In this document: positions 2,051 through 37,739 of the stretch, in pieces
Layout of the letters: each line of letters starts with the position of its first letter
Numbering within the stretch: the stretch's first letter is position 1
From: Macrostomum lignano
Taxonomy: Eukaryota
DNA: 64,000 bases
Direction of reading: 5' to 3'
Assembly: GCA_002269645.1 (NCBI GenBank)
Contig: NIVC01000845.1
Coordinates: 310,001-374,000, forward strand
The notes under the pieces: model-generated
The model's database searches: none
Seen by the model: the letters and a program-made list of their open reading frames with translations, nothing else
Told to the model about the DNA's origin: nothing
Translations under genes and position numbers: made by a program

Positions 2051-2887
2051 ACTACTAAGGGATTCCGTATGGCGCGATTTTGGAGGTGAGGTGGGTGTCA
2101 ACCCTCCTCGCCTCTCATTGGCTGGCGCCCCGATCACTAGGTGATCGATACCCGTATCGATATCGGCGCTCGGCGCGCGCGCGCCGCAGGCCGCGTCCAG
2201 CCGCAGGCGACCGATCCCCAGCCGCAGGCACCTCCGAGCCCACCGCACCGATATGTACCCCGATATGTACATAGGCGCACCCTCCCGAGCCGTAGGCGCC
2301 CATGCCGCAGACGCCCATGCCGCAGACGCCCATGCCGCAGGCACCCCGAGTGTACACTCTACCGAGCCGCAGGCACCCCGAGTGTACACTCTACCGATAT
2401 GTACACTCTACCACTCTCCCGATATGTAGTCAACGATATTAGGCTAGTGAAAACTACTTATAGTAGGTGAAATTGAGTATATTTACATAAAAATGTAGAT
2501 AAAACATATTGGTAGGTGAATAATGACGCATATTGCATATTAAAATGTACATATTGGAGCATATGAGCAGCAAAAACACACAATGTAGGTGTATGGGCAG
2601 AAATAGACAAAGCAGGTACTGTAGGCGCTACATAGGTGGAAATACACACAGCAGGTTTACAAAGTGTACTTTCGATACATATCGGATTAATGTATAAAGC
2701 AGGTTTACAAGGCATGCATAAGGTGTAGTTGTATAATACAGGCACGCATGTATAATCAGATTATAGGCAAACGCCCAGGTGCAACAGACGCGTAAATAAT
2801 GTCGCACCGACTAAAGAGTAAATATTGTCTAACCCGCAGGTGCATAAAAATTTTAACCAAAAGCGGTTCGGGGAAATCCCAAAAGGG
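2051..2887 (+). repeat. Left terminal inverted repeat (~837 bp)
   Basis: Reverse complement of 10540-11430. Essentially identical except for a variable GC-rich segment (~2190-2290) and a few mismatches near the inner end. Confidence 0.92.
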
Positions 2888-2896
2888 TGGTTCACG

Positions 2897-2928
2897 ACCT
2901 AATGACCCGATATACTTTCAACACAATT
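2897..2928 (+). repeat. 32-bp direct repeat just inside the left TIR (partner at 10450-10481)
   Basis: ACCTAATGACCCGATATACTTTCAACACAATT vs ACCTAATGACTCGAAATACTTTCAACGCAATT; 29/32 identical, same orientation. Confidence 0.8.
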
Positions 2929-3482
2929 AAACCCAATAGTGACGCAGGGGCCGGAAAAGTCTACAGCCCCCAGCCAGGAATCGAGCCTGGGTCACCCTGT
3001 TTTATACCGCCAGGGTTACCCGCTCGGCCATTAACCTCCCGGGGTCAGAGTCTCATTATTGTCTAAAATAGATGAGCAAAAGGGAGGTTTCGCCGCCCTA
3101 TGATGTGGAGACTTATTATTATTACAACGTTATTGAACGCATCAACATCTTTTAACGTAAATGTACCCACAAGTGGGCTAGAAAAATGGACGTATTTCGA
3201 TTGCGCTATCAGTACGCTAATCAGCGCAGCAAGTTTATGTCAGGAGTTCTACTCCAAGAGGCGGACCGCTGGGCCACAAACCGCCCCGAGGGAATAGGTG
3301 TCAAATGGGAGTTTTAACACTTGAGGGGATCCCGCTCAATGTACAGTGGAGGTGCCAAATGAGTAAGGACCCCTAAGTACAGTGCGGGCGTAAAACCATT
3401 TTTCAACCCCAAGAGTCAAGGGATCCCAAGTGGGCACATAGGGGAATCCCAGGCGTAAAAAAGATAGATCCTTATCTTTCAC

Positions 3483-6400
3483 TCACTCACGAAAGCCATA
3501 CGGACGGCTGGCGGCCCCATACACCCTCTTAGTCATTACGCGCTGGAAAGTCTTGTCCATCTCGAGGGTCCGGATTGTACAGCTAGCCTTATCGCGCCTG
3601 AACTGGGCCTGGGGCAGGCGTACAGTCCCGCCGTGACGCAGAATTTCCTGCAGCTCGTCCTCGCGCTCGGAAATCTCGGGTGTGACTCTGATGCCCTTGC
3701 ACTTGAGCACCGAGTACAGCGACCCGTCAGGCTTCTCCACCACGTACCGGTAGAGCTTGGGGCCTCCCGTGGTGAACTGTACCATGCGGCAGCCAGCAGG
3801 TACCTCGTCAGTCCACTGCCCCAAACTCGAACCGCCCGGAGGCTCGTACTCGCCCGGAGAGCAGCGGTATACGACCCTGGGAGGAGGAGAAGGATAAAGT
3901 GTTAAGGGGAGAAAGAGAGACAGAGACAGTTGAAAAAATTACTCACGAATCAGTATCGGCGTAAATGACGCGGGTTCCTAGACCCTCCAGAGCCTCGTAG
4001 AGTCGCAGCCGGGCGTGGGAGGTGGTGAAAACGCCAATAGGTACATTAGCGTACTTGAACGCCCGCTCGCCAGCACCGCCAAATCGGGGCTTGTACTCGA
4101 GCATCATGAAGCTCTCCCCAATTGGCTCGCACGACTTGACCTTGATCGAGGGGTCGGTCAGGCGCTGCAGCCACGCCTCGTAGCTGTCCACAATCTCTGT
4201 GGAGGTCAGGTCGTCGCGCTGGCAGAATTTGCCCCAGAGCCTGCAGGGAAAAATAAATTTTTTTTGTAAGTAGAAAAACACGGCCCCCACTGCAAGTAGA
4301 AAAAACTTACGAGTTTAGAAAAATCTTGGCCACAAAGCGCAAGCCAGGATTCTCCTCCACCTTTTCCAGCCGGACGCCTTCGCGCTCGAAAAAGCTGGCC
4401 ATGTAGGCAGCCTTGGCGTCCTCAGCCATCCCCGGCGAACCGCTAGACTCGGCTTTGAGCTTCAAAAAAGTGTTTACATAATCTGCAAACAGGCCCGTGC
4501 GAGTCTCGGTCCAATAGGCCAGGGCATGAACTGACTGCAGCTTGTAACCCAACTGCAGGGCTTTGTGGAGCTCTGGGGTCGACCACGTGCCGCGGAGCAT
4601 TCTCTCAGCGTCAGTGTGTGTACACTCGCTGCTGCACTGGTCTCCATGCAGACGCGGCAGAGGCCGAAAACCAGCTTCTTGTTAATCTTGGCGGGCAGTA
4701 GCGGGATGTGGAGATTGGTTGGCGGCAGAATCGACACCTCGGCGATGCCAAAATACCGGGCCAGCTGCAGCTCATCCAGTAGATGAGGCTCGGGGTGGTG
4801 TACCGGGTGCCCGACCGGGTACTTGTCAAACTTGTTGACAGTCGGGTAGAGCGACACCTAGGGGATAAGGATAATAGAGAATTAGAGGATAAGATAAACT
4901 CAAACGCATGTCAACTGTGTGTGTACAAGTGTACAAACTTACCACATCCCGATAGCGCAGCTCTACAGTCTCGGTGGCCTCGGCGTGCGGGACAAAAGCC
5001 TCGGTACGGCCGCCAAACAGGGCATCCTCCAGGTGAATAGGCTGCTGGACTGGCGCTCCCTCGTCCTGATAGTCGTGCTCCCACAGAACACGCACATTGT
5101 ATGCAGTGGAGAGCAACCGGGTGAAGCGCTCAGTCTCCTCATAAATCGCCCGCATTGGCTGGTTCTTGAGCGGGTGCAGCACGTCGCCGTTGGGGAAGCA
5201 CTTGGGACAGCCATGGAAGAAACAGCCATGAAACTGCAGCACTGTCCTGGTCTCTGGGTCGAAGCCGTCGACCTTACGGCCCATGGCGAAAGCCTCGCCG
5301 CCAGAATCGGCTGTCCGCAACCGGCCGCCAAACTCGGTTGCATTTAAATGTGCCAGCCAGCACCGCGCCTTGTGCGACTGTACATCGGACCGGCGGGAAA
5401 TCACCCCAAGAGTGTTGGGCTCCATAAACTTGGTGGTGAATACCGACATGGCCAAGCCCGCAATGGTGTTGGATTGAACAAATGCGTCCAGTCCGCAAAT
5501 GTCCTTAATCAGGCGGGTGTACTTTAGACAGCCTTCCCGCAAAATTAACGTGTCCTGCAGGCAGTAGTCCAGGTACTCCTTATTGAAATTAAACACCTGT
5601 CCCTCCTGCTTGGCCAGCCAGTCTGCGATGGAGTCATGCTGCTTGTTTTTCTTTCCTCCATACATATCAATTGAGCAGTAGGGTCCCACGTACCCCCAAT
5701 TTTCCGGCTGGTTAAACACGTGCGGGAAATCTCCTTTGGTCAGTTGGGTGCCCAAACCAAGCGCCTTTGGGAATTGCGCCAGACCAATAGGGATGAAATT
5801 GAGGCTGTCCTTGAAGGTGATCTTGTCGCACTTCATATACATTAGGCGGCTGTTCTGGAAGATCACTTGCGGCTTCTTCTTGGCCAGTCCGTTGAGTAGG
5901 GCGCCGAGCAGGAGGAATGCGTCATACGCAGAGCCATTGTGCGCAATAGCAATTGCCCCCTGCTTGAACACACTAGTCAGCCAGCAGTAAAAGGCATCGA
6001 TAGAGTGCGGCCCGACAGATACAAACTCTCGCATCCCACAGGCACAGTCATTGTGCGAGACACAGCTCGTGAAATCGAGCGCCAAATCGCGTCCCGCAAT
6101 GCAATTGGCTGAGCTGTGTAGTCCCCGCACACGCTGCAGCGGGCCTGGGGAAGAGTTTGGGACACGCCTCGCAGGAGGTGGCAGCCGTAACCAAGTGTAC
6201 CCGGTGCTGCTTGCCAGAGTCCACGTACGTCTCGAAATCATAGTAAACATACGGGGCGCTAGACTCTTTGGCTTTGGGCGGGGTGACAAAGCACTCGTGG
6301 GTGGCAGTTTCGTCGTACTGCTTGCAGACTGGACACTTGGCGTAACCACACTGATGCTCAGGGGGCTGGCCTACTTTTAGTTCTTCTAGATAGCCACACG

Positions 6401-8319
6401 TGCCGCAAACGTGGACCGAATCACAGCGCGATCTGCCGGCCTTATTCTTGCGCTTGTGATTTTCTAGGCACTGAGCATTATAGCAATTTAGCCCGCAATC
6501 ATGGCATCTTACATATGCGCGGTTTGCCTTACAGTTGGAGCCCGGAGTCTTGCATGTGCTGCAGGCATCAGCGCACTTGTGCTTCTCATTATTGCAGTCG
6601 TGGCCATCTCGCACTTGTCGCAGTAGTGGTGGCTGCCGAAAAACGCAGGCAGCTTGGTGACCACATTAAAGTGCTGCTCGACCAGGTGTAGGTGCAGAAT
6701 CTCGGTGCCCGGCAGGTTGAAGATGCACCTGTTGGCCTCCTCTGCGCGGTACACGCGTACACCAAAATCGTGCCCTGGATGCAGCCGGTTCAGGGCACGG
6801 ATCGCTTCGGGCAGTGCATCCACCCCGAAAGGACCAGCCTGCGAGACGGTTTGAAGAGTCTGTGTGGAGGGTAAAATATTTCTTTTAGTATTCCCTGATA
6901 CTGTGTAAAAAATCTTATCAGAAAATATATCTTTTAGTATTCCACGATACTGTGTAAAAATTCTTATCAGAAAATATATCTTTTAGTATTCCATGATACT
7001 GTGTAAAAATTCTTATCAGAAAATATATCTTTTAGTATTCCACGATACTGTGTAAAAATTCTTATCAGAAAAATACTAGAAACTTACCGTGTAGAGGCCA
7101 GCTTCGATTTGTAGCTCAGCCACCAGCTTAGTCTGCGTGGGCGAATTGGCCTTGATTGTGTGCCACACCCGCTTGGTGATGGACTTGGCCACGAATTGCA
7201 GGTAGGCGCAGGCCACGACCAGAGCGCGCAGCAGGCATCTCTTGTCCGAGTTGGTGATGCGGACATAGTGCTTGGAGAAGGCGTGCCGCTCTTCTAGATG
7301 CTTGTTCTCGAGAGCACATCCACCTCGAGGCACCCAGGCCTTTAGCAACCGGATAGAAAAGTTGCCCGTCAGGACAGTGGCATCCGACTGCACAATCTTG
7401 TTGATGTGCTTAAACAACAATTCAGCCGTCATGCGGGATGCACGCACCGGGGGAGTGTGGGCCGCTTTGAGCATATTGTCGCTCTCGAATTTCGCGGCCA
7501 TAAAGTCATCACCAGCCAAATCTTGCTTGAAAACTTCGAGCATGTCAGCAAACACCTCCCGCAAATCTTCGGTGTTGGTAATATGCACCACATACTCGAC
7601 ACCCTTTGCCCTAAACTTGGGCAGGTCACGCTGATTATCCAGCCGGGCCGTAAAACCTGCATGGGGGAATGGGGGAGTGTGAGTCAGCCAGGGTCTGTGT
7701 GGGAAATGGGGGGCTGGATAACTCACCCGGTCCGGTAACAGATTCCGGCTGTGTTGGCGGGACAAACGCGTCTGAAAAAACACAAGGAGATAAAAAACCA
7801 GAAGAATCTGTCATTTTCCTGGCCCCAGCGTGTTTCCCCGCCCTAGCCCCAGCAATTTCTTAACAGAGTTTACTCTGCTGTCCCCGCAGCAACTCTCTGC
7901 AATTTCTTATCTGCACCCCCGCTGCAGCCTGTCGCAGCAGTCTTTGTTTACTCACCCCTGCAACTCTCTGTCGCAGCAATTTGCACCCCAGCTGCAGCCT
8001 GTCTGGACAACACCCCCCTAGCAGCAATTTCTTATCAGCACACACCCGGCTGAAACTTGTCTAGCCCTCCCCTGCAACTCTCTGTTACAGACCCTGCCGC
8101 AGCACCCCACCCTAGCAACTCCAGTCTAGACCCCTGCAGCTGTCGCAGCAGTCTTTGTTGTTTACTCTGCGTCCCACAGACCCTGCAGCTGCTGCTGCTG
8201 CTCAGCCCCTACCCCACCCTAGCAACTACAGTCTAGACAGAAATTAATTAAAACTTACCATAAAGACGTTGCCTCTTGTCAGCCAGGAAAGCAGTTGCTG
8301 CGGCGCTGCGTTTAGCCAT
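3483..8319 (-). CDS. polB: Protein-primed family-B DNA polymerase (pPolB), 7 exons: 8319-8259, 7771-7727, 7656-7088, 6859-4943, 4857-4311, 4240-3947, 3876-3483; about 1,276 aa after correcting apparent single-base frameshifts
   Basis: Motifs: ExoI YDFET, ExoII AHNGSAYD, ExoIII YCLQD, FGGRTEAF, motif A YRDV^VSLYP, CTH-ER-LRGTW, motif B KIFLNS^LWGKF, motif C YADTDS^VVY, C-terminal RPYGF. All six introns have GT(A/G)AGT donors and pyrimidine-rich YAG acceptors, and their phases restore the frame. Frameshifts at ~6605, ~6080-6160 and ~4645. Confidence 0.93.
3877..3946 (-). other. pPolB intron 6 (70 bp, phase 2) in the Ser codon of catalytic motif C (DTDS)
   Basis: GAT ACT GAT TC|GTGAGT...CTCCTCCCAG|G GTC GTA TAC gives DTDSVVY. 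Confidence 0.92.
4241..4310 (-). other. pPolB intron 5 (70 bp, phase 2) in the Ser codon of motif B (KxxxNSxWGK)
   Basis: CTA AAC TC|GTAAGT...TTTCCCTGCAG|G CTC TGG GGC AAA gives LNSLWGK. Confidence 0.92.
4858..4942 (-). other. pPolB intron 4 (85 bp, phase 0) in motif A (DVVSLYP)
   Basis: CGG GAT GTG|GTAAGT...ATCCCCTAG|GTG TCG CTC TAC CCG gives RDVVSLYP. Confidence 0.92.
6860..7087 (-). other. pPolB intron 3 (228 bp, phase 0), containing a 49-bp tandem repeat
   Basis: TAC ACG|GTAAGT...CCACACAG|ACT CTT CAA joins AGLYT to TLQTVSQAGPFGVDALPE in frame. Confidence 0.85.
6874..7075. repeat. 49-bp tandem repeat, ~4 copies (CTTTTAGTATTCCACGATACTGTGTAAAAAT/ATCTTATCAGAAAATATAT)
   Basis: Unit starts at 6882, 6931, 6980 and 7029. 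Confidence 0.9.
7657..7726 (-). other. pPolB intron 2 (70 bp, phase 1)
   Basis: GGA CCG G|GTGAGT...CCCATGCAG|GT TTT ACG gives GPGFT. Confidence 0.78.
7772..8258 (-). other. pPolB intron 1 (487 bp, phase 1) with degenerate GCAGC/CAACTCTCTG repeats
   Basis: CTT TAT G|GTAAGT...TTTTTTCAG|AC GCG TTT joins MAKRSAAATAFLADKRQRLY-D to AFVPPTQ; phase is compatible with the 45-bp exon 2. Confidence 0.72.
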
Positions 8320-8557
8320 TTTGCAAACAGAGAGCGTGAGAGAGCGGAGAGAGAAGGATTTATCTCTCTACCCTGGCTCTGGGGGTCTGTATATATACTA
8401 AAAAATCTGCTCAGCTCGCCTGTTATTGGATAAATCGCCAAAAACCAACCAAAATCATCAAAAATCACCCCAAAATCATCACCCACCCCACCCTCCACCG
8501 GGGGTATATAAGGCGCTGCACGGCTGTCAGAGAGCTCTCTGCTGCTGCTGCTAAATC
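8320..8557. promoter_or_regulatory. Putative bidirectional promoter between pPolB and the PC4-like gene, with two TATA-like boxes
   Basis: TATATATA at 8390-8397 (~70 bp upstream of the pPolB ATG, context CAAAATG) and TATATAAG at 8505-8512 (~50 bp upstream of the ORF 8558 ATG). Confidence 0.55.
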
Positions 8558-9091
8558 ATGTCTTCTATCTCTCTATACGAAAACTTTGTGGCGCGGAAGC
8601 CCACATTTGAAACTGAACACAACTTGATTGAAATTCGGCGTCTCTACACCAACGAGGCCGGAGTGTGGAAGGACGGCTTCCCTGCAATCTACTTGGCCGA
8701 GCCAGAGTGGAAGAAGCTCGAAGCTGCGCGCCCTGACCTGGAGGCTGCTGCCCGCCTTCACGTGAACAAGCGGGTCCTGTTGGGCAATTTCAAGGCAGTT
8801 GAAGCTTCGCGAGGGAGGATCCGTTTGCTGCGCAATTGGCTCAATCAGGACCCAAAGTTTAATTGGCGCTACACGATCGAATTCACGCCTGAACTGTGGC
8901 GCCGGATGTTTGCCGCCCGTTTGGACAAGCTCTTCAAGCCGGCACCTGAGGCACCCCCTCCAGCCAAGCGAGTCAAGACAGACACGCCTCCGGTAGCCGG
9001 GACTGAGGTGGATGTTCTTCAGCTCATGGGTCTCAAACCCTACCAATCTCCACCCTGGGAAAATCTGTTTAACGAGGGTTGGGACTGCTAG
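8558..9091 (+). CDS. PC4-like ssDNA-binding protein (possibly two tandem PC4-type repeats), 177 aa, basic NLS-like PAKRVK
   Basis: LIEIRRLYTNEAGVWKDGFPAIYLAEPEWKKL fits the PC4 pattern (IDIRxxY...GxxKPxxxGIxLxxxxWxxL). A second weaker repeat is RIRLLRNW...TIEFTPELWRRM. Recognised by eye, no HMM run. Confidence 0.62.
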   Translation: MSSISLYENFVARKPTFETEHNLIEIRRLYTNEAGVWKDGFPAIYLAEPEWKKLEAARPDLEAAARLHVNKRVLLGNFKAVEASRGRIRLLRNWLNQDPKFNWRYTIEFTPELWRRMFAARLDKLFKPAPEAPPPAKRVKTDTPPVAGTEVDVLQLMGLKPYQSPPWENLFNEGWDC

Positions 9092-9207
9092 TTTCCTATT
9101 GGTTCGCACCGCCTCACTCGATCCGTCTATATAATTAGTGTTTCCCCCTCTCTCAGAGAGTCAAACCCTATCTCAGCTCTAATACTTTACTCTCTGTTGA
9201 TTCTAGC

Positions 9208-10222
9208 ATGTCCCGCCGAGCTCTATCCAACCTCTGGGATAATAATCGCCCGACTGAAGAGTTAACCAGCCTCGACGGGGATATCCCTGAACACATAGTT
9301 CCCCTAGGCACTGAAAACAACGGAAGTGATAATTGGGAGGCTGATCAATATCTAGCTTGGGCTATGTCCTATGATAGCGACACCGAGTCTGAAGTTTTTG
9401 ACCTCCCGCTGCTGGCTATCGGCGGGGTTGTGAACGGTGCCCCTGCTGCTACTGCCTCCGATTTGACTACCGCCTCAGCCGCCCTCTTTGACGTCTCTGT
9501 TGAGGAGCTGACCACAACCGGCCCTGCCTCTGCTGCGCCCGTCTCTGCTGCTGCCGCCTCTACTACGCCCGTCTCTGCTGCTGCTTCAACTACCTCCCAC
9601 CGGGCCTCAATATCATCAGCCGCTACGCTCCTTCTCTTCGACGACGAGGACGAGGATATGTCTGAGGAGATCGCCGTGGTTCGTGAGCGCTTTCCTCGCA
9701 TTGTGGCCTCATTTTTCCGCGGGGACATTGACTGGCTGAGGTCTCGGCATCCTGGCGGGCTGCCCTCCCAAGCTACCTTTGTCAGAGCCTTTAATCGGGT
9801 TCTTGATACTTTGGTTGCGAGGGGTGCCGGCCTACGGGAGGTGTTGGAGGCTGAGACTCTGCACCAGGACTGGTTGATGGGGCGCAATTCGTATGCCCCC
9901 GACTCTGAGGCGTACCTGGCCGGTCCGGGAGCGCGGCCAACTGCGTGGGATGAGCCCGTCGCATGGCCCTCCAACTGGGAGGAGCACCTTTCGTTGGTGC
10001 GCTATACAGCGTCTCTACGTCTGTGGCGGCTGGAGGACGATTTAGATTTGGTAAGATATTACATTATATACACAACTCATCTAATCATATACCTTGCATA
10101 TATTCTATCTACATTGACTGTTATAATTTCCACATTGCCAGTCATCCGACTACTGCTTCGAGAGCGTGGAGGAAGAGGCCGCGTACGAGACAGCCCTGAG
10201 GGAGCGTATGGAGATTGACTGA
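9208..10222 (+). CDS. Orphan acidic/Ala-rich protein of the element, 2 exons (9208-10050, 10142-10222), ~307 aa
   Basis: Long GC-rich ORF. AT-rich GTAAGA...TTGCCAG intron (10051-10141); splicing gives DDLDL|SSDYCFESVEEEAAYETALRERMEID*. No family recognised. Confidence 0.6.
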
Positions 10223-10539
10223 TAAGGTATTTCTCTTTGTACGCGGTTTGGGGAACCCAACACTGTACACTGGGTAGGTTAGAATGGGCGCTAGCTGGGG
10301 GCCTCTATGTGTGTATACACGGGGGTTAAAAGACCAATTCTGATAGCTCGCTCCTAGGGAGGAAATTGGCAGAGGGGCCGGCCCAAAAAACTGAAATGGG
10401 CTGGCCCCGGGCTCGAGTCCACCCACCTAAAATATGGAGGGTCATTACAACCTAATGACTCGAAATACTTTCAACGCAATTGTACCTATAAGAGGGTTAG
10501 GGCGGCGGCGGCGGTGGCGAAAACGGGCGGCTAAAACCT

Positions 10540-11430
10540 CCCTTTTGGGATTTCCCCGAACCGCTTTTGTTTAATATTTATGCACCTGCGGGTTAGACAA
10601 TATTTACTCTTTAGTCGGTGCGACATTATTTACGCGTCTGTTGCACCTGGGCGTTTGCCTATAATCTGATTATACATGCGTGCCTGTATTATACAACTAC
10701 ACCTTATGCATGCCTTGTAAACCTGCTTTATACATTAATCCGATATGTATCGAAAGTACACTTTGTAAACCTGCTGTGTGTATTTCCACCTATGTAGCGC
10801 CTACAGTACCTGCTTTGTCTATTTCTGCCCATACACCTACATTGTGTGTTTTTGCTGCTCATATGCTCCAATATGTACATTTTAATATGCAATATGCGTC
10901 ATTATTCACCTACCAATATGTTTTATCTACATTTTTATGTAAATATACTCAATTTCACCTACTATAAGTAGTTTTCACTAGCCTAATATCGTTGACTACA
11001 TATCGGGAGAGTGGTAGAGTGTACATATCGGTAGAGTGTACACTCGGGGTGCCTGCGGCTCGGTAGAGTGTACACTCGGGGTGCCTGCGGCATGGGCGTC
11101 TGCGGCATGGGCGTCTGCGGCATGGGCGCCTACGGCTCGGGAGGGTGCGCCTGCGGCTCGGGAGGGTGTACATATCGGGGTACACATCGGTAGGGTGGGC
11201 ATACATATCGGTAGGTGCGCCTGCGGCTGGGGAGGGTCGCCGGTGGCTGGGGAGGGTCGCCTGCGGCTGGACGGCGCTTGGCGCCACGCGCCTGCGGCGC
11301 GCGCGCGCCGAGCGCCGATATCGATACGGGTATCGATCACCTAGTGATCGGGGCGCCAGCCAATGAGAGGCGAGGAGGGTTGACACCCACCTCACCTCCA
11401 AAATCGCGCCATACGGAATCCCTTAGTAGT
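10540..11430 (-). repeat. Right terminal inverted repeat (~891 bp)
   Basis: Reverse complement of the left TIR; the ORF track shows mirrored identical peptides (2458-2745 and 10680-10967). Confidence 0.92.
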
Positions 11431-14035
11431 CTCCTCTGACGAGAGCGACATTCGAGTTCGAGATGATGTGGTGTCTTATCTGTCCTTTTGCGATTCCCGT
11501 ATCGATGATGAGCCAAAAGTAGTTCTGCTGCATCACCAGTGACGCGTTTGCGTGATCAAGAATTGCGAAGACGTTAGCTGGTTCGGCCAGCACCAACATG
11601 TGGAACACCTTCTTCTTCAGAAGTCGAGTCATGTGAGCGTTGAGGTCGGTGACCAGAGCTCCGCTATTTGTGTCCACTTGGAATGTGAGCGAGCTGATTC
11701 CGTGTTTCGTAAACGAGTTTTGCAAGTCCTGCAACACCATGATACCTGAAAATCAGTTTAGTGAGCTTATATGAATATGAGCTATGTCAGATAATTTAGT
11801 ATCTGATTCTCATCATTGAGTACTCACTCTGCTTGCTGTCAAAGAATATGACGACCTCGGATGCAGACTTCGCAGCCATTGTCTTCACTGCAGCATTGAC
11901 CATGTGTAAGGGTTCGTGCATTCCGAAGACACTGTAGTCTGAAGTGAACCCGATTTTCATTTGGGCTTTTGAGATCAAGTACTCCTAGCTTAAGGACTGC
12001 ACAGACTTACCCGTTGACGAATATTGTTCTTTGCAGATGCCAGATGGAAGCGAGATGAGTGGCAGCTGCATCGTCTTTGTGGCTGCCGAAATCTGCATCA
12101 GTGTACTGCACTGACCGACGGCAATCACGCCTGATAGTCCAGTCTGCTCACACACTGTGGGTGGGCCATGCAGTTGGACAGGCAACAGTCAGACAGTAAA
12201 GACACATAATACAAGGCAGACTGGCTCACTTACTTGACTTGACGATTTGAGTAGCACTGCAGGAAGTGGCGTTGATCTCGACAAAGCTGATGCTGTGACC
12301 CGCCAACACCCGCCAGTTCGAGCTGACTCGGTGGCTGAACGCGTTGACAACGAGAGAGCGATTCACGGCGCCGTTCTCGACGACCACGGCCACTTTGAAG
12401 TTCAAGGACAGCGAATGCGTAATGCATTGCAGAAAAAACAGGGCAAAAGTTAACCAGGCCATGTCGGTTTCAAATAGGGATGAAAGAGTTTTTGTTGTTT
12501 TTTCTTGCAGTTGCGTCCGCATTCGGCACTCCTTTATACCACTCTGCTGTGATCTTTTTTTGTAATTGAAAAATTGATTAAGAAGATTTAGCATCTTAGC
12601 AACCGAACAACAACTTTCTCTATGAATTTTCTTCAATGTGCTTTGATCTTCTCTTTGGGTTAAATTTCTCCCTTCAAACTTGCAGATCGATGAACTTTAC
12701 TCAGTGAAGCTTTTCAGTTCAGGTTGCAGGGAGCACGAGAATGAAATTTTTGTTTAAGGCCGAGCATTCTTCACTCAGTATTTAATAGTTTCAGTTTTCA
12801 TTTTGTAACGCGATGCGTTTGGCGGAGCTCAGTTTGCCATTGGGAGCTTTGTTAGAGATGTCATGCAAGAGAAGCCGCATTCAGTTTGTCTAAGCTTTGA
12901 CGAGTATTGATTGAAACAGTCAAATGAAAATTTGTTCGCCGTCTCTTGTCAAGCACTTAATTTAAGTGAAAATTTGAGGAAATGTAATTCTAACATTCTA
13001 ACTGCTTGCTGTTCTATAAAGATTGAGGACTTGATGGACTATCGCTTGATTCAAGCGAACCGTGATCCAGCCACGTCTATTGTGTGATTTCAAGCCAATC
13101 GGACTGAGCCTTCATTTCATTGCTGTCTTCAACTCACCCACGTCTCTAAATCCTGTTCTGCTTCCCTTTCTCTACGAATGCACTTTTCTTTGTGTTTTTA
13201 CCTGTATTCTTGCATCCCTGCTTGGATTCAAAAAAATTTTTGCATCCATCTTGGTTGCCCTTGAGTAGGCGAGACGCCACCCTGGAGTGGACAGTGTCTG
13301 CTCAATGGGTAAAAGTTTTCATTCTCGATCATTATAGCGAGTAAATACGAGTATTGCAACGCAGATTGTACGGTAGTCTGCCGCTTGTGTTAGTATAAAA
13401 ATCGAACAGCACAACGAACAAAGATACTCCCTATACTTAGAATGTCTCTCGATGCTTGTAGCTCTTGTGACTTGGTAGACGTTGGAAGAACTTCTCCTAA
13501 ACAAAAACTTATACCAGAAAATTCCACTCAGTTTCCGGGGAACTTTATGGACCTAGCGAGGGCTTCATGCTTCAAGTGTTCATCAAATATGAATACCTTC
13601 AGAATCATTGTTGCTGCTTTTAAAGCATTTTAAGCAAAGCACAAAAAATCTAGCTAATAATATAAAAAAGGTCGGTTAGTAGCAGGGAGGCGACAGGATG
13701 AAGGCTCAATACAAAGCGACCCCGGAGCACGTGCCATTGCACACACAGGAATATGTACTAAGACCTAGAATCTTAGATTGCGTGGCAGCAGGTTTTGAAG
13801 CCCGGTCGAACCAAGGTAATTCCACGGCAACTGAACACCATGGTAGTTCCGATCGAACTGGGTTTTGGGACACCCCTCGTATATAAGTTAGAGAGAATTA
13901 TCATTACAAACATATTCGAATAACTTGAAAAACTAATAGCATAGACATTTTGAGGTCAATCTGAGAGATGCGAAGAAGGTCTATGGTAATAGCTATTCCC
14001 ATCCGACTTGCTAGGGTGGGCAGAAGCGTTTTTTT

Positions 14036-14432
14036 CATGGATGAAGGAATAGAAAGGATCGCTCATCTGAAAGCGAGTCTATGGCTAAAACCTCCTAAAA
14101 ATTGGGATATTCCCCCCCATAAATTTCATTGGCTGCTGGAATTTAATAATAGTCCCCCCTAAGTTCTTAATGGCTGAAGCTTGTACGCGGGGGGAAATGC
14201 TAATTTCTTTCCCTTAAGCCGTCGTGGCCCAGAGGAAGTTAAAGATGTCTAACGTTAATCGTGACTTTGGAATTTCCCTCGCGTACAAGCTTTAGCCATT
14301 AAGAACTTAGAGGGCGACTATTATTAAATTCCATCAGCCAATGAAATTTATGGGGGGATATCCCAATTTTTAGGAGGTTTTGGCCATAGACTCGCTTTCA
14401 GATGAGCGATCGTTTCTATTCCTTCATCCATG
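14036..14432. mobile_element. MITE-like foldback element (~150-bp inverted arms, ~90-bp spacer)
   Basis: CATGGATGAAGGAATAGAAAGGATCGCTCATCTGAAAGCGAGTCTATGGC... is mirrored by ...GCCATAGACTCGCTTTCAGATGAGCGATCGTTTCTATTCCTTCATCCATG. TSD is ambiguous (AT or CATG). Confidence 0.75.
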
Positions 14433-16281: not shown

Positions 16282-19200
16282 TTAGTAAAACAGGCAGTCA
16301 GCCGGTGTCCGATTCAGTGCCTTCGTCCAGGCCAGCTCGAACACTAAAATAAACAGGCCGATGACGTAGCAGGCGAGGGAGACAATGAAGCAGCCACCGA
16401 CCCCCTCCAAGTCGATCGGGTCGGCACTGGCTGATGAGCCCGTGGTGCAGACAGAGTCGCTAGACCAATACTTTTTGAATAGCTTGTCCATCACGCCGTT
16501 CTCTTGCATCTTCTCAAAACTGTGAATTGTTGTTCGAATTTAAACAGCTCCAGACGGTAATAGAAGTTATATGGGAGGTGTAAGGTTGTTATGGGTAGCT
16601 ACTCTCATTCTGTATTTCTGCTGCAGCTCGGAGCTGCTACCCAATAACAGGAGTGTGAACTGGAGCTCAGCTAAATTTTTTACTCACTAGAAGTCAAACA
16701 GCTCGGCAAAATAGGCGTCTCTGGGATAGGCAAAAGCAACGGTGGCCGTATTAAAAATCTCGTCAGCCATGTACACCTGACTGCAGTTGGCCCCGGCTGT
16801 GTACAATATGACAGTGTAGTCGGTTATGCAGGCCACTGGTTCGGTGAACACCTGCACAGTTTAGTAATCGGAATGTATCGATTCATTTCTGTAGAATTCA
16901 TTCTACTACGAGCGTATGTCTAATCCAGTTTAGTTCAGTTAGTGGGCCCAACGTATCGATCTTTCGAAACTTTATCGAAGTTGTCTAAGACAATAGACAG
17001 ACTCACCCGTTCCGCGCACTGTGGAATGCTGTCAGCGTCAATCATCTGATCAGCCACCTGTCTGTAAACGCCTGTTTTCGTAGACTGCAATAGGGTGTAG
17101 ATGTTTGTGCCAGCTGGGACCAGTGGTTTCAGAGCCGTCTGAGCCACCAAGTCGTCCAACGTTTTAATAGGAAATTTGGTCACGGTGATGGTGAGATGGG
17201 CCGTGAGATCGCCTGAAGGTGTCAGATCAGTTATTAAATCTTGGCTGCATGTGACTAATACATAGGCTTTTACTGCTTCTACTCAATTTTACTGTCTCAC
17301 CCGTGTAAGTTCCATAAATGATCACGGTGAACATCCACCAGAAGGCCAGCACAGCTCTTGGAGACATGGCAAACGGATAAAAGTCCTGACCCTGCTGCAT
17401 GAAGCTGCCAACTATACTCCAAATGTACTCCTGCAGCCAGATCTCATCAGCAATGGCGAACTCCAGTCTCAGGTTGTAGGCAGTGAATGGAGAGAAATAG
17501 GCCAGCACCCAGGTAACTGCGGCGGAGACAAAAATGGATGCCACGATGAGAATCCACACATCGTAGTTAAATGGAGTGAAGACGTTCCACAGTTTCGAAC
17601 CCGCGGGAGGTCGCGGCACCAGAATAGCGTTGGCCTCTTGGAAGAGAGCTCTTCCAAAGCCGATGTGAAACTCCCGCTCGCTGGTCTTTGTGAATGGCCC
17701 GGCTCCGAATTCCACCAACTGGAATTTATGGAATTAGCATCAAATTTAACTTCCGATTTTTGTTACTGTTCCGGCGTTTTTGGACGTACGCTCAAAATAA
17801 TATGAGTACCCTAAAAAGTATTGGCAGCTGAAGGCTTAGGTACTGGCTACCAGAGTTTTACATCCGCTTACTCCTTTCTGAATCTCGCCAACGCAGCCGG
17901 TGAAGTACTCGTTTCCCGGATGAAGGGCGCCCCACTGACCATCATCTGGAGCCTTCGCAACATACCTAAAAGCAAAAGCTTCATGATACATTCAGGTACG
18001 CCAATGATACGAAACAATTGCCGAACTTTAGAAAAAAAATACCTAAAATCGAGCTTCTCGCCAAGAATTTTCATAACATCTAGAAGCATTCCCCCAACTG
18101 TTACAGTCTTGTTTGGGTAGATGGATGCGTATGTCGTAAATGGAGGAATCTGAAATTATATTTTGGAACATTTAAATAGTTTCAATTGCACAGCTATCAA
18201 ACGATATGACAAAAATATTGTATGACAAACGTACATCGGGGCTGCATACAAGCAGGGTTCGATTCTTAAATCCCAGGAATGTGTTGGGGAACACGAGGCT
18301 CACGCCCTTCTCTCTGAACAAAACGCTTAGCGCTCCACTCTGGGTGTTGTGCATTCCCGACTGAATGAACTGAATAGGTGATGACAGTTTCTGGTTGAAG
18401 CTGCCCACCACTTCGATGCCCTGCGAGTCGAAGTGACCGGTGGTCGAGTTGAACGAGATCACTCCTCGGTTCGAGTTGTAGCCGGACATCTGTTATTACA
18501 TTTCGGTGGTTAGGAGAGTACGTCTGCATTCGATAGTAGGCGTAAAAAGCAACTCCGATTTTTAAAGCACTCAACTCACGCTTGTCAGCTTCGAATAGAC
18601 GGACGGCCCCGAGCTCCACACCTGCAGAGGATTGCAGGCAGCGTTGCTGACATTGAACGTCGACTCAGTGACCGCATCGTTCAGTGCCTTCGCCAGAGCC
18701 TCGACTGCATCAACGAATCGAGTGTCCAGTGTCTGCAATTGTCAGAATTTTCAGAATTTCAGCGTTGCAGTTTTCACATCGACCATTTTCATAGCTCGCA
18801 GCTATGCTCAACCGTTTCACTGCTCACTCGGATCCAGTCTGTGTCGCAGCTGTCGAACACGTCTCGCACAGGAGCGGAACATGATCCGGGAACGTTGATT
18901 CCCGTTGTGCCTCCTCTGACGAGAGCGACATTCGAGTTCGAGATGATGTGGTGTCTTATCTGTCCTTTTGCGATTCCCGTATCGATGATGAGCCAAAAGT
19001 AGTTCTGCTGCATCACCAGTGACGCGTTTGCGTGATCAAGAATTGCGAAGACGTTAGCTGGTTCGGCCAGCACCAACATGTGGAACACCTTCTTCTTCAG
19101 AAGTCGAGTCATGTGAGCGTTGAGGTCGGTGACCAGAGCTCCGCTATTTGTGTCCACTTGGAATGTGAGCGAGCTGATTCCGTGTTTCGTAAACGAGTTT

Positions 19201-22953: not shown

Positions 22954-26786
<3,833 letters not shown>

Positions 26787-28228: not shown

Positions 28229-31200
28229 CACGCCTCCCCTGAAGAGAGAGTTTGGTCAATGAAATATACCCTAAAAAATATTGATTTCCCATGAATCTAT
28301 GACCCAACAGACGTCCAAAAAAGCAATAGTTGAAATCCTATCGCATTGTCTGCATAGTGTACAGGTATGCTAATTAGTACAGTGATTTTTAGTACCAGGT
28401 AGGTACTACAAGAAGAACAAGAAGGTCTGAGAGAACATGGCAACCATCCTGCAGCAACGAAAATGCTAAAACAAGGTAGAATTTACGTTTCTGTTCATTC
28501 TCTGTCACTTATGGTTCATTAATAGTGTTTTTATTACCTGTCCATACCTGTGTACACCTGAAAATTATGTTTTTGCATACTATATTGTGCTGAATTCACA
28601 CCAGGGCGTGTATCTTCACACTTATCATTGTACGAGCGTATTTACATGTATATGCTCATGGCTCAAAATAAATTGAATTCAATATTCTGGCTGCAGACTT
28701 TTCTTTCTGTTTCAATAAGCTATTTGGCCCATAGACATCTCCAGATGATGAGGCAGTCAGAACTAGGAGACAAGTTAATTCCAGTATTTTCTTCAGAACA
28801 AAAAGAAATAGCAAGCAGCAGCTGCTACAGTTTTACTAAACTTTTACTGAAATTAAAGTTACTGTAAGTGAGACAACTAGCTATGAAAATGGAAAGGGTA
28901 TATTTGAGTGAGATACTCTAGGTCGACATTTATAAGCTGAGTGAAAGCGTACAATACACGATTGAGTGTAATATGGGGTGGGGCGATCAATAATTTGGGG
29001 GAATGTATGTATGAGCTACATAAATATGCATGCAATATATTAGACTAATTGAGTGTGCAGGTAGAAATACAAGAACAATAAAAAAATACTGCGACACTGG
29101 CTGCTCCAGAACAATGCCAAACAACAAGCGCTCACATGAAGAAAATCGAAGATGTGTGTGCATCTTGTGCTTTCGGAAGGGAGACCAACCGCTGACAGCC
29201 ACTCTTGAAGCGCTGATTGAATGCCATGTGCTGCCAGGCTTTGCTGACCATCGTGGATTTCTGCCTTTAAGCATCTGCAACTCCTGCAGAATCAAGCTGA
29301 TGTCACAAAGCAGCCCTGCACCAACACCTCTGCCACCAAAAATGCCCTACAAGCAAATTATTACAGATCTGCGCTGTCTTCCGCCACTCACTCGCGAATG
29401 CCCCGATTGCAACTGCTGGGTGTGCCATGTGGGCTCCAGCAGAGCCAACAAGAATGTGGCTGTATATCACCCTTTCATGCCAGATGAGTCTGCTGCTGGT
29501 ATTGCGACGCCACTTGGTCGCCCTCCAAATAAGGCACCTGGGCCGATGGGAGACAGTGTCGTCAAACGCTGTGAGACATGCTCATCGCCAGTGGCACGTG
29601 GATTGAGGCACCAGTGTGGACAGGCGGCAAAACTGCGCTATCTTGATGCCCTAAGCCCCTACTCAAGGGAGCACGTAGCCTGCGGTCTTCTGCGTGAGAA
29701 GCTGGGTGTAGCCACCTCTTCTGGCTCCTTAGCAACTGCAAGCCTGACTTCTGGCACAGGTGGGCGCCCACTCCAAGTTCAAGTGGCTGGTATATCAACT
29801 ACCGAGATTGCGTCAGTCCAGCATAGCACTATGCGAGCTGTAAAGACTGCACTCAACCTCAGCACCAGTCAGACGCTATGTGCGGCTCAAGTGATCAGAG
29901 AAGCGTCCGGCAGCAAAAAGGCCGTGCAGTCTGGGCTGAAAGAGTTTCTGTTTGCTGAAGGTCAGAGTGTCACCAAGTTTTTTACAGCTGAGCAGTGGCA
30001 GTTTTTCCGCAAACAGCCTAATGGACAAGAGTATGTGATCGAACGGTCTGTCATGTTCTGCCGGGATGTATACGCTTTTCTGGCGCATGTCAGTAACTCG
30101 AGAGGCACTGCTGAGATGCACCAGAGAGTGAAACTTGCGATTGATAGAGGAGGCAATTCCTTAAAGGTGTGCATCAGTGTTACCGTGGATGACAGAGGAT
30201 GCACTTTGTCTGCCCAATTTAACCGATTTATGGACTCTGGAGTGAAAAAGATCCTCATCCTGGCCCTTGTTGAGGATGTCAAAGAATGCTACCAGAACGT
30301 TAGTGTACTAATGGCAACCATCGACATCAGCTCCATTAACTTCACGTTGGCCTGCGATTTTAAACTGGCAAACATAACCAGCGGGATCCAGAGCCATTCT
30401 TCATCGCATCCCTGCCTGTACTGTGAGGGCAGGCCTCCATGGGAAGTACCAGCACAAAGGGGGATGCTCGGCTCAATTCGACACCTGGCAAGTGAGTTTC
30501 AGGCAGCTGGTAGACACCAGCCTCTAGCCAAAAACTTTGCCAACTGCGTCTAGCCTCCACTGCTACCTGGGAGCGATTCTGCTGAACTGCTGGACGTGGT
30601 ACCACCGCCAGAGCTGCACATGATGCTTGGCATTGTGAACCGATTGCTTGATGCTCTCAATGCAAGCTAGGGTAGCAACAAGGCCTACGAGTGGGCCTAT
30701 GAAGCAGGCATCTGCAGGCAGCAGTATCATGGAGGTTGCCTGGAGGGCCCAGCGTGCAAAAAGCTCCTTCTGAAGGCGAGTGAGCTGTGGAGCGTGCTGC
30801 CTCCACACCTGAAGCTCTACGCAACAGCACTTCAAGACTTCAATGCTGTGCGCGAAGCTTGCTTTGGCCAAAGTCTGGCAGCTGATTACAGTCTCTACAT
30901 TGCTCGCTTCCAGACGACATGTAGGTACCTCGAGCTTTCAGTTACGCCAAAGATGCACACGCTTTTTGACCATGTGCCAGCGTTCTGCGGCAAGTATGGC
31001 AAGGGGCTTGGCAGCTTTAGTGAACAGGCTGTTGAATCAGCCCACAGTGACTTTGAAGCCACCTGGCAGCGCTATAAGCGCCCCCTAAATCATCCTCAGT
31101 ATAGCACGTGTCTACTGCAATCCATCATAAACTATAATTCATTTCACATCTGAGCCAAATATGTCATAACTTGTAACTTGCAAATTCCAATTTACTACTG

Positions 31201-32107
31201 CCAAGATAACTACAAGTAAACTGTTGAAAAAAGTAGTTAGTAGTTAGTACATTGGTTTTGCTGTTACATTCAATGGTTGTATTTTGACAACCCACTAAAC
31301 TCGTATGTTTGTATTAGGTAAAGCAGAAAGTTGTCGCAGGTTTTAAGGCCTTCTATGAAATGAAGTGCTTGAAGTACATGTAATGGTACTGTATCACAGT
31401 AGCTGGAACTTGAATTTGGGTTTGCTCTACATCAGTCAATGCATGTCTTTTTTATTCTGCAGCACACAAGGCTTCCAGAAATTCTGTAGGCTTATCTTTG
31501 CAAATTGCAAGAACTTTCTGTTTTACTAAATATTGTACTAGCTTTAACAACTATTCTAGCTATTTTACTCTAGTTATTCTACCCGTGTAGTCATTTGCCG
31601 CCAAAATAAGCTTGTAATTCCCAATGACCTCTGCTTATGCTTTCTGTTTTTCTTTTTTCTCTTCAATAGTTACTGGCTTTGTTTTGACTCTCAGTGCCAG
31701 TCTATCGCTGCACTGCTCCAAAAACTTTAAAAAATTGAAAACGTTACTAGGAAAACACAAGCTCCATGTGTAAATTAATCTCAGTCAGGTATGGACAGGT
31801 AATAAAAACACTATTAATGAACCATAAGTGACAGAGAATGAACAGAAACGTAAATTCTACCTTGTTTTAGCATTTTCGTTGCTGCAGGATGGTTGCCATG
31901 TTCTCTCAGACCTTCTTGTTCTTCTTGTAGTACCTACCTGGTACTAAAAATCACTGTACTAATTAGCATACCTGTACACTATGCAGACAATGCGATAGGA
32001 TTTCAACTATTGCTTTTTTGGACGTCTGTTGGGTCATAGATTCATGGGAAATCAATATTTTTTAGGGTATATTTCATTGACCAAACTCTCTCTTCAGGGG
32101 AGGCGTA
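28229..32107 (+). mobile_element. Chapaev (CMC superfamily) DNA transposon, decayed
   Basis: 322-bp TIRs (28229-28550, 31786-32107). Termini CACGCC...GGCGTA (terminal G changed to A relative to the CAC/GTG rule). 4-bp TSD TACT (28225-28228, 32108-32111). Internal transposase gene. Confidence 0.88.
29114..31153 (+). pseudogene. Chapaev transposase with two in-frame TAG stops (30551-30553, 30668-30670)
   Basis: N-terminal Chapa zinc finger H-x7-C-x2-C...P-x2-I-C-x2-C...C-x-C-x2-C (HEENRRCVCILC / PLSICNSC / CNCWVC). Core motifs AIDRGG, CDFKL, PPPELHMMLG, TPKMH..HV, GLGSFSEQAVESAH. Confidence 0.85.
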
Positions 32108-32366: not shown

Positions 32367-32599
32367 TGTAGGCAGCGCCTACTATCGTGTGTGTTGGGGG
32401 GTTGTTAGCGGCTGCGCCGCGTGACTCTGCTAGCTCAACCCTTATGCGTACAATATCAAATGTGCAAGGTGCGACTTTAGCCACCATTCTGACTTAGCTC
32501 AATAATTCAATAAATATACTGTTCGCTATTATTCTCGCCTGCAAGCTTTCGGCAACTATCGACTACAACAAGCAGTCTAGCCTCGTTTCACTCACTACA
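32367..32599 (+). repeat. 5' LTR (233 bp)
   Basis: Matches 36336-36569 with 5 substitutions and 1 indel. Confidence 0.95.
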
Positions 32600-32633
32600 G
32601 TGGCATCGCAAGCAATTGCATCCAGCGCGGGGC

Positions 32634-35600: not shown

Positions 35601-36217
35601 CCAAAGTCTGGTGGCCAAAGATGCGCAGCGACTGCGAAGTATTCGTCAAGTGCTGTGTCGGTTGCCAAGCAGCGGCCACGCACGTGCACCAGACGCCTTT
35701 GAAGCCGACGGAGATGCCGGACGGACCTTGGCAACTGCTCGGCATGGACTTCTACGGCCCGGTGCAAGGTCAGATGCTGCTGGTCACCACGGACCTGTAC
35801 TCCAAGTACCCGGAAGTCGACATCATGCAGTCAACGACGGCCGGCAACGTGACACCACATCTGAGACGGCTGTTCGGTCGACACGGCATCCCTGCTGAGG
35901 TCATCACGGACAACGGACCGCCCTTTAACTCTGCCGACTTTCGCAGCTTCCTCAGCGGATACGGAGTTCATCATCGGCTCATCTGTCCGCTGCATCCGGA
36001 GTCCAACGGAGCCACCGAGCGTGTCAACCGCAGCATCGGGAAGGTGGTGAAGACTGCTGTCGCTGAAGGTCGGAACTGGAGAGAGGCCCTGGACGACTGG
36101 CTTCTGGCGTTCCGCACAACGCCTCACCGAGCAACTGGGCGGACTCCGGCCGAGCTCCTCATGGGCAGGCCGATCAACGACGGAATCCCAGCCAGCAGAC
36201 ACGCCGAAGTGCTATAA
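32634..36217 (+). pseudogene. gag-pol polyprotein, frameshift at ~33678 and TAG at 35162-35164
   Basis: Two CCHC knuckles (CYRCGERGHATC, CNNCGKPNHLAKEC); protease IDSGAS; RT (ICQDLR, DVRKAFYQ, WVHDD); RNase H (VDAS, EREAL, TDH); integrase (HTGHLG...CVGC, MDFYGP, TDNGP, SNGATER). Confidence 0.92.
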
Positions 36218-36335
36218 GAGTTAAGTATCTGATCCGCATTGCCTGAAGCGGCATAACTCAAGCTGAAGCGGTGTACTTCGTAAACAGTTAATTTTATTTA
36301 GTTCGAAGTTTTTTAATTCCTTTGGGGGGGAGAAG

Positions 36336-36569
36336 TGTAGGCAGCGCCTACTATCGTGTTGTGTTGGGGGGTTGTTAGCGGCTGCGCCGCGTGACTCTGC
36401 TAGCTCAACCCTTATGCGTACAATATCAAATGTACATGGTGCAACTTTAGCCACCATTTTGACTCAGCTCAATAATTCAATAAATATACTGTTCGCTATT
36501 ATTCTCGCCTGCAAGCTTTCGGCAACTATCGACTACAACAAGCAGTCTAGCCTCGTTTCACTCACTACA
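36336..36569 (+). repeat. 3' LTR (234 bp)
   Basis: Follows the polypurine tract; matches the 5' LTR. Confidence 0.95.
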
Positions 36570-37739
36570 GCTGGGTGTAAAGAGCCAATAAATTGAGCCT
36601 TGGCTTTAAAAGTACATTAAAATGCTTCTGTTTAACTTACTACTGAACTGAAAGTAGCTTACACGCAAATGAGCTGAGTGGCCCATCTAGTTATTCTAGT
36701 ATCTGTGACCCCTGTTTAAAGATGGTCTCAGCAATTCGCGTGACAAACTTCGTGACAGGAGACGATCTGGCGACCCGGGTGGATGTGCCTCGACTAGTAA
36801 ATTTCCTGACTCTATATCTGCCTCACTGGCAACATCGAGTAACCGAGTCATCGCTGGTGTATCCGACCAGACAAGTGCCTGTCTGTGGAGCCAAAAGCAT
36901 GGAGGAGGCTCTCGCAGAGACGGAGAGTACTGTAGCCCTATAAATTACAGAGCATAAAATTGCTTCTAAAAATGATTTTTGCCCGTCACAAGCATTGAAA
37001 AATTTATGAAAAACAAAACGAAAGTACTAATGCCTGTCGCATGTATTTAGAAGAATAAAACATAAAAAACAGGGGCGGTATTTATAGCCTGGAATGGTTA
37101 TTACAAGCATGAAGCATTCATGAAAACATTTGAGCAGTATTGATTATTTAGAATGAGAGAAAAGCCTCGCAATGGTCATCCCACTCTGCTGGCTGCGTCT
37201 CTGGCAGTGTCATCTGTTGGTCCGACGAAGGTTTTTACGCCCCCACTCCGCGCACTCACCGGGCTCCGATGGACAGTTTCCGAGCCACCACGGTTGTGGC
37301 TTTGGCGGGTTTGGCTGGTCCTTCGTGTTCTTCCAATATCCATTGCCTGTGTTGCCACAGCTAGCGGCATGGCATGTCTCAACTGCAGCACGGGCCCTGT
37401 GGGAAGGCTCTCGAATCAGATTGCGAATTCCTCCCAACGCTCTTTCAAGCTGGCCATGCGTCGGAATTGATGAATGGTGAGCTCTATGAAGGGCAGACCT
37501 GACCGATGAGCCTCGCCAGATTTGAACCACTTTCGAATACTGATGGTCTGTGTAATCCGACACCAGGGCTGATGCGATAACCATATGAACGCCAAGGTGC
37601 AAAGTACTTTGTTTATAAAGGGTCCAGGACTGCAAACATAATTCATGATATTCAATTCCAACTGTGGGAATCCAATCGCGATTACCACTCGCAATCTTCC
37701 CTTTTGCACCAATCTGCTTTCGGCAGTCCGGCAGTCTCC

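Follow-up and report, generated by a model that had tools for sequence, protein, structure and literature searches.

The 9,380-bp element at positions 2051-11430 of a 64,000-nucleotide stretch of the Macrostomum lignano genome (the window; assembly GCA_002269645.1, contig NIVC01000845.1, positions 310,001 to 374,000, forward strand) is probably the polymerase-bearing half (R) of a bipartite Polinton, mutually dependent with a second, separate half (S). R encodes a spliced protein-primed DNA polymerase (pPolB) and a PC4-like protein, S encodes an integrase, an ATPase, a protease and a major capsid protein, and each inserts alone with a 6-bp target-site duplication (TSD). The same split recurs in two families, R1/S1 and R2/S2, between which synonymous divergence is saturated. 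The dependence looks mutual because no integrase/capsid element sharing these ends, in any of the 24 copies examined, has a polymerase of its own. All parts of R and S are canonical Polinton parts; the novelty lies in the two-component architecture, for which no full-length form was found and which is repeated in two old families.

Ends and genes of the window element

The element has the ends 5'-ACTACT...AGTAGT-3'. Alignment of its terminal inverted repeats (TIRs) gave 842 bp on the left (2051-2892, + strand) and 896 bp on the right (10535-11430, - strand), and sequence comparison identified the TSD CTCCTC on both sides (2045-2050 and 11431-11436, both + strand). A single CTCCTC is present at the empty sites of two paralogues of the interrupted host gene (18911-18916, + strand; 24013-24018, - strand), which encodes a ligand-gated ion-channel domain (Pfam Lig_chan). 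These measurements agree with those of an earlier interpretation made from the sequence alone (the sequence-only reading), which had described a 9.4-kb element with long TIRs, this TSD and two empty sites. Long TIRs and a 6-bp TSD are found as in Polintons/Mavericks, while the length lies outside the Polinton range of 13-25 kb, as do the lengths of R1 (8.5-9.8 kb) and S1 (about 10.5 kb) copies in general.

The pPolB gene (3483-8319, - strand) consists of seven exons (8259-8319, 7727-7771, 7088-7656, 4943-6859, 4311-4857, 3947-4240 and 3483-3876), whose lengths in sibling copies give an in-frame total of about 1,276 codons. The product matches Pfam DNA_pol_B_2 (PF03175) with an E-value of 9e-18 and contains exonuclease and polymerase motifs, as expected of a protein-primed PolB; UniRef proteins 94-99% identical to it are from M. 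lignano. A PDB sequence search with exon 4 returned no match, and a single-sequence structure model of this exon reached a pLDDT of 30, too low for a fold search. The N-terminus contains candidate Cys and His motifs, putatively of terminal protein, vOTU and VSR-like type. The second gene encodes a PC4-like protein of 177 amino acids (8558-9091, + strand; high-confidence Atlas assignment), which to judge from its sequence likely binds single-stranded DNA; its family-2 homologue (44% identical) exceeds the Pfam PC4 cut-off. The third is an orphan gene (9208-10222, + strand) with two exons (9208-10050 and 10142-10222), encoding a low-complexity protein of 307 amino acids without integrase similarity or a usable Atlas match, and it is missing from one R1 subtype.

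Splicing was observed directly, as the sequence-only reading had proposed for pPolB. Across all six pPolB introns and the orphan intron, contigs of RNA-like runs are joined at GT-AG. Of these seven joints, four occur in each of the three RNA-like runs and the other three in two of them, while no spliced joint occurs in a DNA-like run. RNA-like is a computed class, no run being recorded as RNA, that the spliced joints support, and the data are contigs that carry no expression level, strand or molecule ends. Family 2 pPolB has introns at all three positions checked. As assembled, the window copy of pPolB contains four single-base frame breaks (near 6601, 6140, 6122 and 4638) that most siblings lack. 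Since contigs of all four runs (three RNA-like, one DNA-like) contradict the window at three of these, they are likely assembly errors. The earlier description of the genes as intact consequently does not apply to the window copy as assembled. Among 34 sibling copies, 11 have all seven pPolB exons open.

No capsid, ATPase or protease gene was found in the window element or in the examined R copies, and no rve integrase in the window element or between the ends of any R copy, apart from a 34% match inside a 31-kb foreign insertion. Profile and similarity searches likewise left three genes only, and the intervals outside them contain no stop-free frame of more than 75 amino acids. The claims that integrase and virion genes are absent and that the leftover interior is too small for them were therefore upheld, and no integrase came to light in the orphan or the unassigned intervals.

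A multi-copy R family

The genome was searched with the terminal 150 bp (best 40 of 275 candidates scored) and with proteins (best 125 of 158 candidates for pPolB, 98 of 451 for the capsid and 150 of 1,510 for the integrase), the assembly comprising 5,269 contigs. The 131 rows of the pPolB exon search fall into R1 at about 85-100% identity, R2 at about 60-70% and a small R3 group, with a single locus more distant. Dozens of R copies of 8.5-9.8 kb carry the spliced pPolB and the PC4-like protein, and copies chosen by their polymerase rather than by their ends are also short, at 8.5-9.8 kb in R1 and mostly 9.5-10.4 kb in R2, and each has a separate TSD. Among 105 copies examined, both ends are visible in 90 and an exact 6-bp TSD in 85, at 79 distinct target sites, and some loci may lie in host DNA that was itself duplicated. 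The idea of a family that has kept its replication module thus held: the family has many copies, these are under purifying selection (see below), and the alternative of a unique internal deletion among full-length copies did not materialize.

R copies vary in an accessory slot beside the PC4-like gene, which in one R2 copy holds a dUTPase gene (L128:739-1257, - strand). Another R2 copy is nested inside a family-2 palindrome, each with its own TSD (G000:C1485:44228-62496), and several rearranged R2 copies are clustered within 30 kb at G000:C157:54478-84477, which could be a silencing cluster.

An integrase/capsid element with the same ends

An exact end-pattern search found an S copy of 10,511 bp with the TSD TAGAAG (G000:C181:646907-657417). 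Its identity to the window element is confined to the terminal 32 bp: the first 32 bp of the left TIR equal the ends of this S copy, although nucleotides ~7-27 are hypervariable among copies. At their start, the ends of S1 resemble those of R1, and the ends of S2 those of R2. The S integrase matches Pfam rve and keeps D-D-E-like motifs, and a structure model of the S capsid (pLDDT 80) matches the double-jelly-roll capsids of PBCV-1, Sputnik and mavirus with E ~1e-16. The ATPase (Walker motifs) and the protease were assigned from motifs, weak Pfam matches and 25-37% identity to one-piece counterparts, and a ~380-residue open reading frame (ORF) at the expected position, with weak matches to one-piece relatives, is a candidate minor capsid gene. 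The gene order PW-INT-minor capsid-PZ-MCP-PRO (INT, integrase; MCP, major capsid protein; PRO, protease) is kept as in one-piece metagenome relatives, PW and PZ being names that we presumed from position. Fic-domain and TBP-like ORFs also occur in S (L034:3921-4724 and L034:1848-2381, - strand), the Fic ORF in S1 only among the examined copies.

The capsid search (best 98 of 451 candidates) separated an S1 group at about 97-100% identity from S2 at about 80-90%. All 24 S copies compared (12 S1, 12 S2) contain the virion/integrase set, and none has a tblastn match to pPolB, the PC4-like protein or the orphan. R and S together make up the full Polinton core set (pPolB, INT, ATPase, PRO, MCP) and jointly qualify as a Polinton, which the window element alone does not, and they show what defines a multipartite genome, complementary genes on separate molecules with shared ends. 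The sequence-only reading had proposed a satellite or parasite of full-length Polintons that borrows integrase, and perhaps capsid, in trans from a helper with ACTACT termini. R does keep only the replication module and must obtain integrase in trans, and an INT/MCP element with the same ends exists; this element is not a full-length Polinton, however, as it lacks a polymerase in 24 of 24 copies, and no full-length copy with these ends was found among the best-scoring candidates. Mutual dependence goes further than the sequence-only reading did.

Pfam Pox_A32 found no ATPase genome-wide; since S carries one, the profile is insensitive here. Pfam double-jelly-roll matches were rejected as partner capsids, as they belong to other, more distant families. 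IMG/VR scans with the S capsid and the R polymerase gave no matches, and a metagenome scan with the S capsid yielded relatives at 28-41% identity only. Capsids 80-81% identical to S1 on short contigs (P0001-P0003, P0027) form the sister rows of S1+S2 and could come from related split elements of other hosts.

Search for a joined or full-length form

Search rows were collapsed into 102 pPolB and 62 capsid loci, dropping rows below 53% (pPolB) and 67% (capsid) as well as second exon fragments. These loci share a contig in three cases only, at distances of 48, 165 and 468 kb. Close integrases (74-100%) lie on S contigs and on two contigs without a listed pPolB, and the next identity is 34-38% in a comparison by eye of the best 150 of 1,510 candidates. 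Four end-pattern searches, two of which used the best 100 of 199 and 100 of 161 rows, yielded at least 114 facing end pairs, 88 of them 8-11 kb apart, 14 closer and 12 farther. Eleven of the 12 over-long pairs were opened, and none unites R and S genes; each is one half, or a member of a third, palindromic class (passengers, see below), with foreign insertions, an internal duplication or nesting, and one of them holds the 34% integrase within its 31-kb insertion. No copy with both gene sets is present among the 105 examined, and neither these copies, the 11 over-long pairs nor the locus-distance test, all based on best-scoring candidates, contain an autonomous full-length helper with the same ends. 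One 18.4-kb candidate with S1-type ends (C56) was rejected as a joined copy, as it contains passenger sequence and tandem repeats only. A candidate third segment (L173, G000:C558:43471-53355; 9.9 kb, TSD CCTGTA) was also rejected: about 1 kb of family-1 end sequence flanks a tandem gypsy-like retrotransposon with long terminal repeats (LTRs), by cargo capture or later insertion.

R and S might nevertheless both have arisen by deletion from a one-piece parent that the assembly lacks (unassembled, recently lost or an exogenous virus) and that supplies the functions missing from each. The assembly is fragmented and the searches cover best-scoring candidates; polB-less Polintons live beside complete ones in butterflies, according to the consulted part of one report (10.1101/2025.02.07.637071); and the gene context of the capsids at 80-81% identity is unreadable on their short contigs. 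We nonetheless consider such a parent improbable, as the same complementary split exists in two families with saturated synonymous divergence, no remnant of the missing module occurs in any examined R or S copy, each half is under purifying selection, and joined copies number 0 of 105 examined and 0 of 11 over-long pairs opened.

One-piece Polintons served as controls. The nearest in-genome capsid relatives have a pPolB of another class beside the capsid block in five of six cases, and 13 of 15 metagenome relatives of at least 8 kb have a pPolB beside the capsid genes. The one-piece element C114 (14.3 kb, AGTAGT ends) holds both PC4-like and TBP-like genes, which are split here between R and S. 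With many one-piece Polintons carrying integrase, capsid and pPolB in the genome, and with one R1 copy lying between the capsid and protease genes of a distant one-piece Polinton, R could be an autonomously replicating satellite of other Polintons, and S an unrelated non-autonomous element served by one-piece Polinton polymerases. This explanation is even less probable than a missing parent. The R1 copy in question is an insertion, because it has its own TSD; C114, the only one-piece element with resolved ends, starts with AGTAGT instead of ACTACT, its integrase is ~33% identical to that of S1 and its pPolB is of another class; and within each family the same hypervariable terminal variants occur in both R and S, which is unexpected for independent elements. 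At least three other Polinton-like families are present in the genome (L053-L054, G000:C67; L043-L044, G000:C1316; L150-L152, G000:C114), the C67 type having a primase-helicase-like frame (by eye) beside capsid, ATPase and integrase.

Shared ends, selection and phylogeny

Terminal nucleotides 7-27 are strongly variable among copies that are otherwise 95-99% alike. Six variants of nucleotides 7-17 are common to R1 and S1 and four to R2 and S2, while none is shared across families; one apparent cross-family variant was rejected as the end of a passenger in the flank of an S2 locus. Six full 27-mers are common to R1 and S1, and in 22 of the 85 copies whose TSDs match, the left end is unlike the right. 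In R, S and passengers, nucleotides ~7-27 apparently form a combinatorial tag of short modules. Judging from these sequences, ends may be exchanged between molecules that replicate together.

Ratios of nonsynonymous to synonymous divergence (dN/dS) were pooled from pairwise Nei-Gojobori comparisons with one reference copy, which are not independent of each other. Within R1, dN/dS is 0.03-0.17 for the pPolB exons and 0.24 for the PC4-like gene; within S1, it is 0.03 for the ATPase, 0.04 for the capsid, 0.16 for the integrase and 0.18 for the protease. Between families, the values are 0.09-0.14 for pPolB and 0.03-0.07 for the S genes, with a synonymous divergence (dS) of 1.4-3.3 or undefined (saturated). 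The low dN/dS in R and in S means that selection has acted on each of them as a half, and on the scale of synonymous saturation the two families are old. Capsid and polymerase trees confirmed the S1+S2 and R1+R2 clades, and the R/S split probably predates the divergence of families 1 and 2.

Several observations weigh against a two-part element, or against parts of the scheme. Over nucleotides ~22-50, S2 ends match R1 and not R2, two variants of nucleotides 18-27 cross families, and the small R3 subfamily is without an identified S partner. S1 copies are less diverged (dS 0.006-0.03) than R1 copies (0.06-0.15), their histories thus being out of step. The trees do not show a common ancestor for the R polymerase and the S capsid, whose relatives are ~25-35% identical and where long branches meet; because of these branches, we claim no origin for R and S. 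A rare joined copy could be missed by searches of best-scoring candidates in 5,269 contigs, and 26 of the 114 listed end pairs lie outside 8-11 kb, 14 of them shorter. Trans-complementation and packaging are proposed here, no complementation, free linear DNA or particle having been observed.

Palindromic passengers and possible packaging

The third class with the same ends consists of near-perfect palindromes built in part from R and S terminal pieces, each family having its own type. Two representative passengers had no match to any R or S protein. Passengers resemble snap-back defective genomes, and these non-coding palindromes may be cheats that exploit both halves. Family-1 passengers with TSDs measure 8.1-9.4 kb in 16 of 18 cases, and twelve loci (L004, L005, L007, L013, L014, L169, L171, L176, L177, L198-L200) are passengers that measure about 8-9.9 kb, have Polinton ends and are flanked by 6-bp TSDs. 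Their resemblance to long-read foldback artefacts, and the many private 1-bp indels in copies, could suggest that the assembly broke or collapsed long Polintons at repeats. This is largely refuted and has hardly any probability left, given that the arms of the palindromes differ by ~0.1-2% and the passengers have their own TSDs, that matching TSDs stand at unique sites (85 exact, 79 distinct) and that empty sites exist for the window copy.

In the bipartite Polinton that we propose, the R pPolB would prime replication at the terminal ~32 bp that R, S and passenger molecules have in common, and the S integrase would recognize the same ends and insert all three. R and S would swap terminal sequence during joint replication, and palindromic passengers would use functions of both halves. 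S likely builds capsids, which may each hold one molecule of ~8-11 kb, whereas the unique sequence of R and S adds up to roughly 17 kb. The size clustering of end pairs and the selection on the capsid bear only indirectly on whether R and S travel in separate particles, and we regard such packaging as possible, at slightly under an even chance. Equally tentative is the full picture of a multipartite integrating double-stranded DNA (dsDNA) virus of an animal, with segments packaged one per capsid, stored apart in the germline, reassorting, trading terminal tags and exploited by size-matched palindromic cheats, the split being so old that two deeply diverged families have it in common.

A rather unlikely alternative, compatible with the split and different in packaging only, is a purely intracellular two-component transposon that has kept capsid genes and makes no infectious particle. 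It fits the lack of any particle seen and the existence of shorter elements with the same ends (14 of 114 listed pairs below 8 kb), and the conservation of R spliceosomal introns between families suggests long nuclear residence. It does not readily explain why dN/dS is 0.03-0.04 for the capsid and 0.03-0.04 for the ATPase within and between families, why protease and ATPase motifs are kept, or why non-coding passengers are mostly 8.1-9.4 kb instead of the size of miniature inverted-repeat transposable elements (MITEs).

Other features of the window

A 49-bp tandem repeat (6873-7068) lies within pPolB intron 3 (6860-7087). The intergenic region between the divergent pPolB and PC4-like genes (8320-8557) is a putative promoter with TATA-like boxes near 8388-8400 (- strand) and 8504-8513 (+ strand). 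At positions 1-25900 an ionotropic glutamate receptor-like gene is present in triplicate; the copies are near-identical, one is inverted, and the element breaks an apparent exon of the first. The window further includes a MITE-like hairpin of ~400 bp (14036-14432), a 3.9-kb element with perfect 321-bp TIRs (28230-32106) and a GC-rich, LTR-like stretch of 4.2 kb between 211-bp direct repeats (32390-36570).

Relation to known elements and viruses

A two-component integrating dsDNA architecture should surprise specialists. According to the excerpts consulted, pPolB copies linear DNA, starting at protein-primed ends; Polintons pair this polymerase with an rve integrase and generate TSDs of 5-8 bp (PMC10748475, PMC11161782, PMC4061559). 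By definition, a Polinton has its polymerase and integrase on the same molecule. A Polinton survey, as described in the part cited, retained a locus only if all five core proteins lay within 20 kb (PMC10748475), and by this demand split Polintons would be dropped as fossils. Multipartite viruses of animals were considered rare and confined to single-stranded DNA (ssDNA) or RNA, polydnaviruses excluded, in the relevant passage of a 2016 review (PMC5094692). Complementary cheats have been proposed, in an excerpt of another source, to replace a full-length genome (PMC10159356). A two-part Polinton with cheats, recorded as dated germline insertions of a flatworm that is kept in the laboratory, would offer a direct test of that idea, and integration may bypass the usual multipartite cost, as the halves can wait in the same genome. 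Literature searches, mostly of titles and abstracts, with Repbase and supplements outside their scope, returned neither a bipartite Polinton nor any study of Polintons in M. lignano, so that a prior listing is possible.

The comparisons below rest on the parts of the cited papers that were available. R and S resemble Polintons/Mavericks (adintoviruses, Eupolintoviridae) in pPolB, rve integrase, ATPase, protease, double-jelly-roll capsid, long TIRs and 6-bp TSD. They differ in being two separately integrating elements of 8.5-10.6 kb, whereas intact vertebrate Mavericks span 12.7-24.6 kb (PMC8097293) and Polintons 13-25 kb (PMC10748475). Their ends, 5'-(ACT)2//(AGT)2-3', are outside the three vertebrate motifs listed, and pPolB has six introns here while intact vertebrate Mavericks are intronless (PMC8097293).

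Bidnaviruses such as Bombyx mori bidensovirus (BmBDV), and the Drosophila Vesanto virus, share with R and S a segmented genome, a Polinton-derived pPolB and similar-sized segments with shared terminal repeats, but theirs is ssDNA with a parvovirus-type capsid, and the cited passages mention no integrase (PMC4061559, PMC8363768, PMC8502044). BmBDV, unlike R/S, has capsid and PolB on one segment, and the double-jelly-roll capsid model and rve integrase set R/S apart from Bidnaviridae. In the segmented densovirus of Acheta domesticus, the replication cassette and the structural cassette occupy different segments and each particle holds one of them, a layout like that proposed for R/S; it is a non-integrating ssDNA parvovirus with unrelated proteins (PMC10267136).

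Butterfly polB-less Polintons and integrase-less Polinton-like viruses also lack a core module that is presumably served in trans, but there complete relatives coexist or one module is missing, and no complementary partner is described in the portions cited (10.1101/2025.02.07.637071; PMC11296320). Transpovirons and linear pPolB plasmids are, like R, capsid-less linear replicons from Polinton-like elements; they depend on giant viruses or are free plasmids, whereas R is found integrated, between 6-bp TSDs, and has a partner element of its own (PMC11161782).

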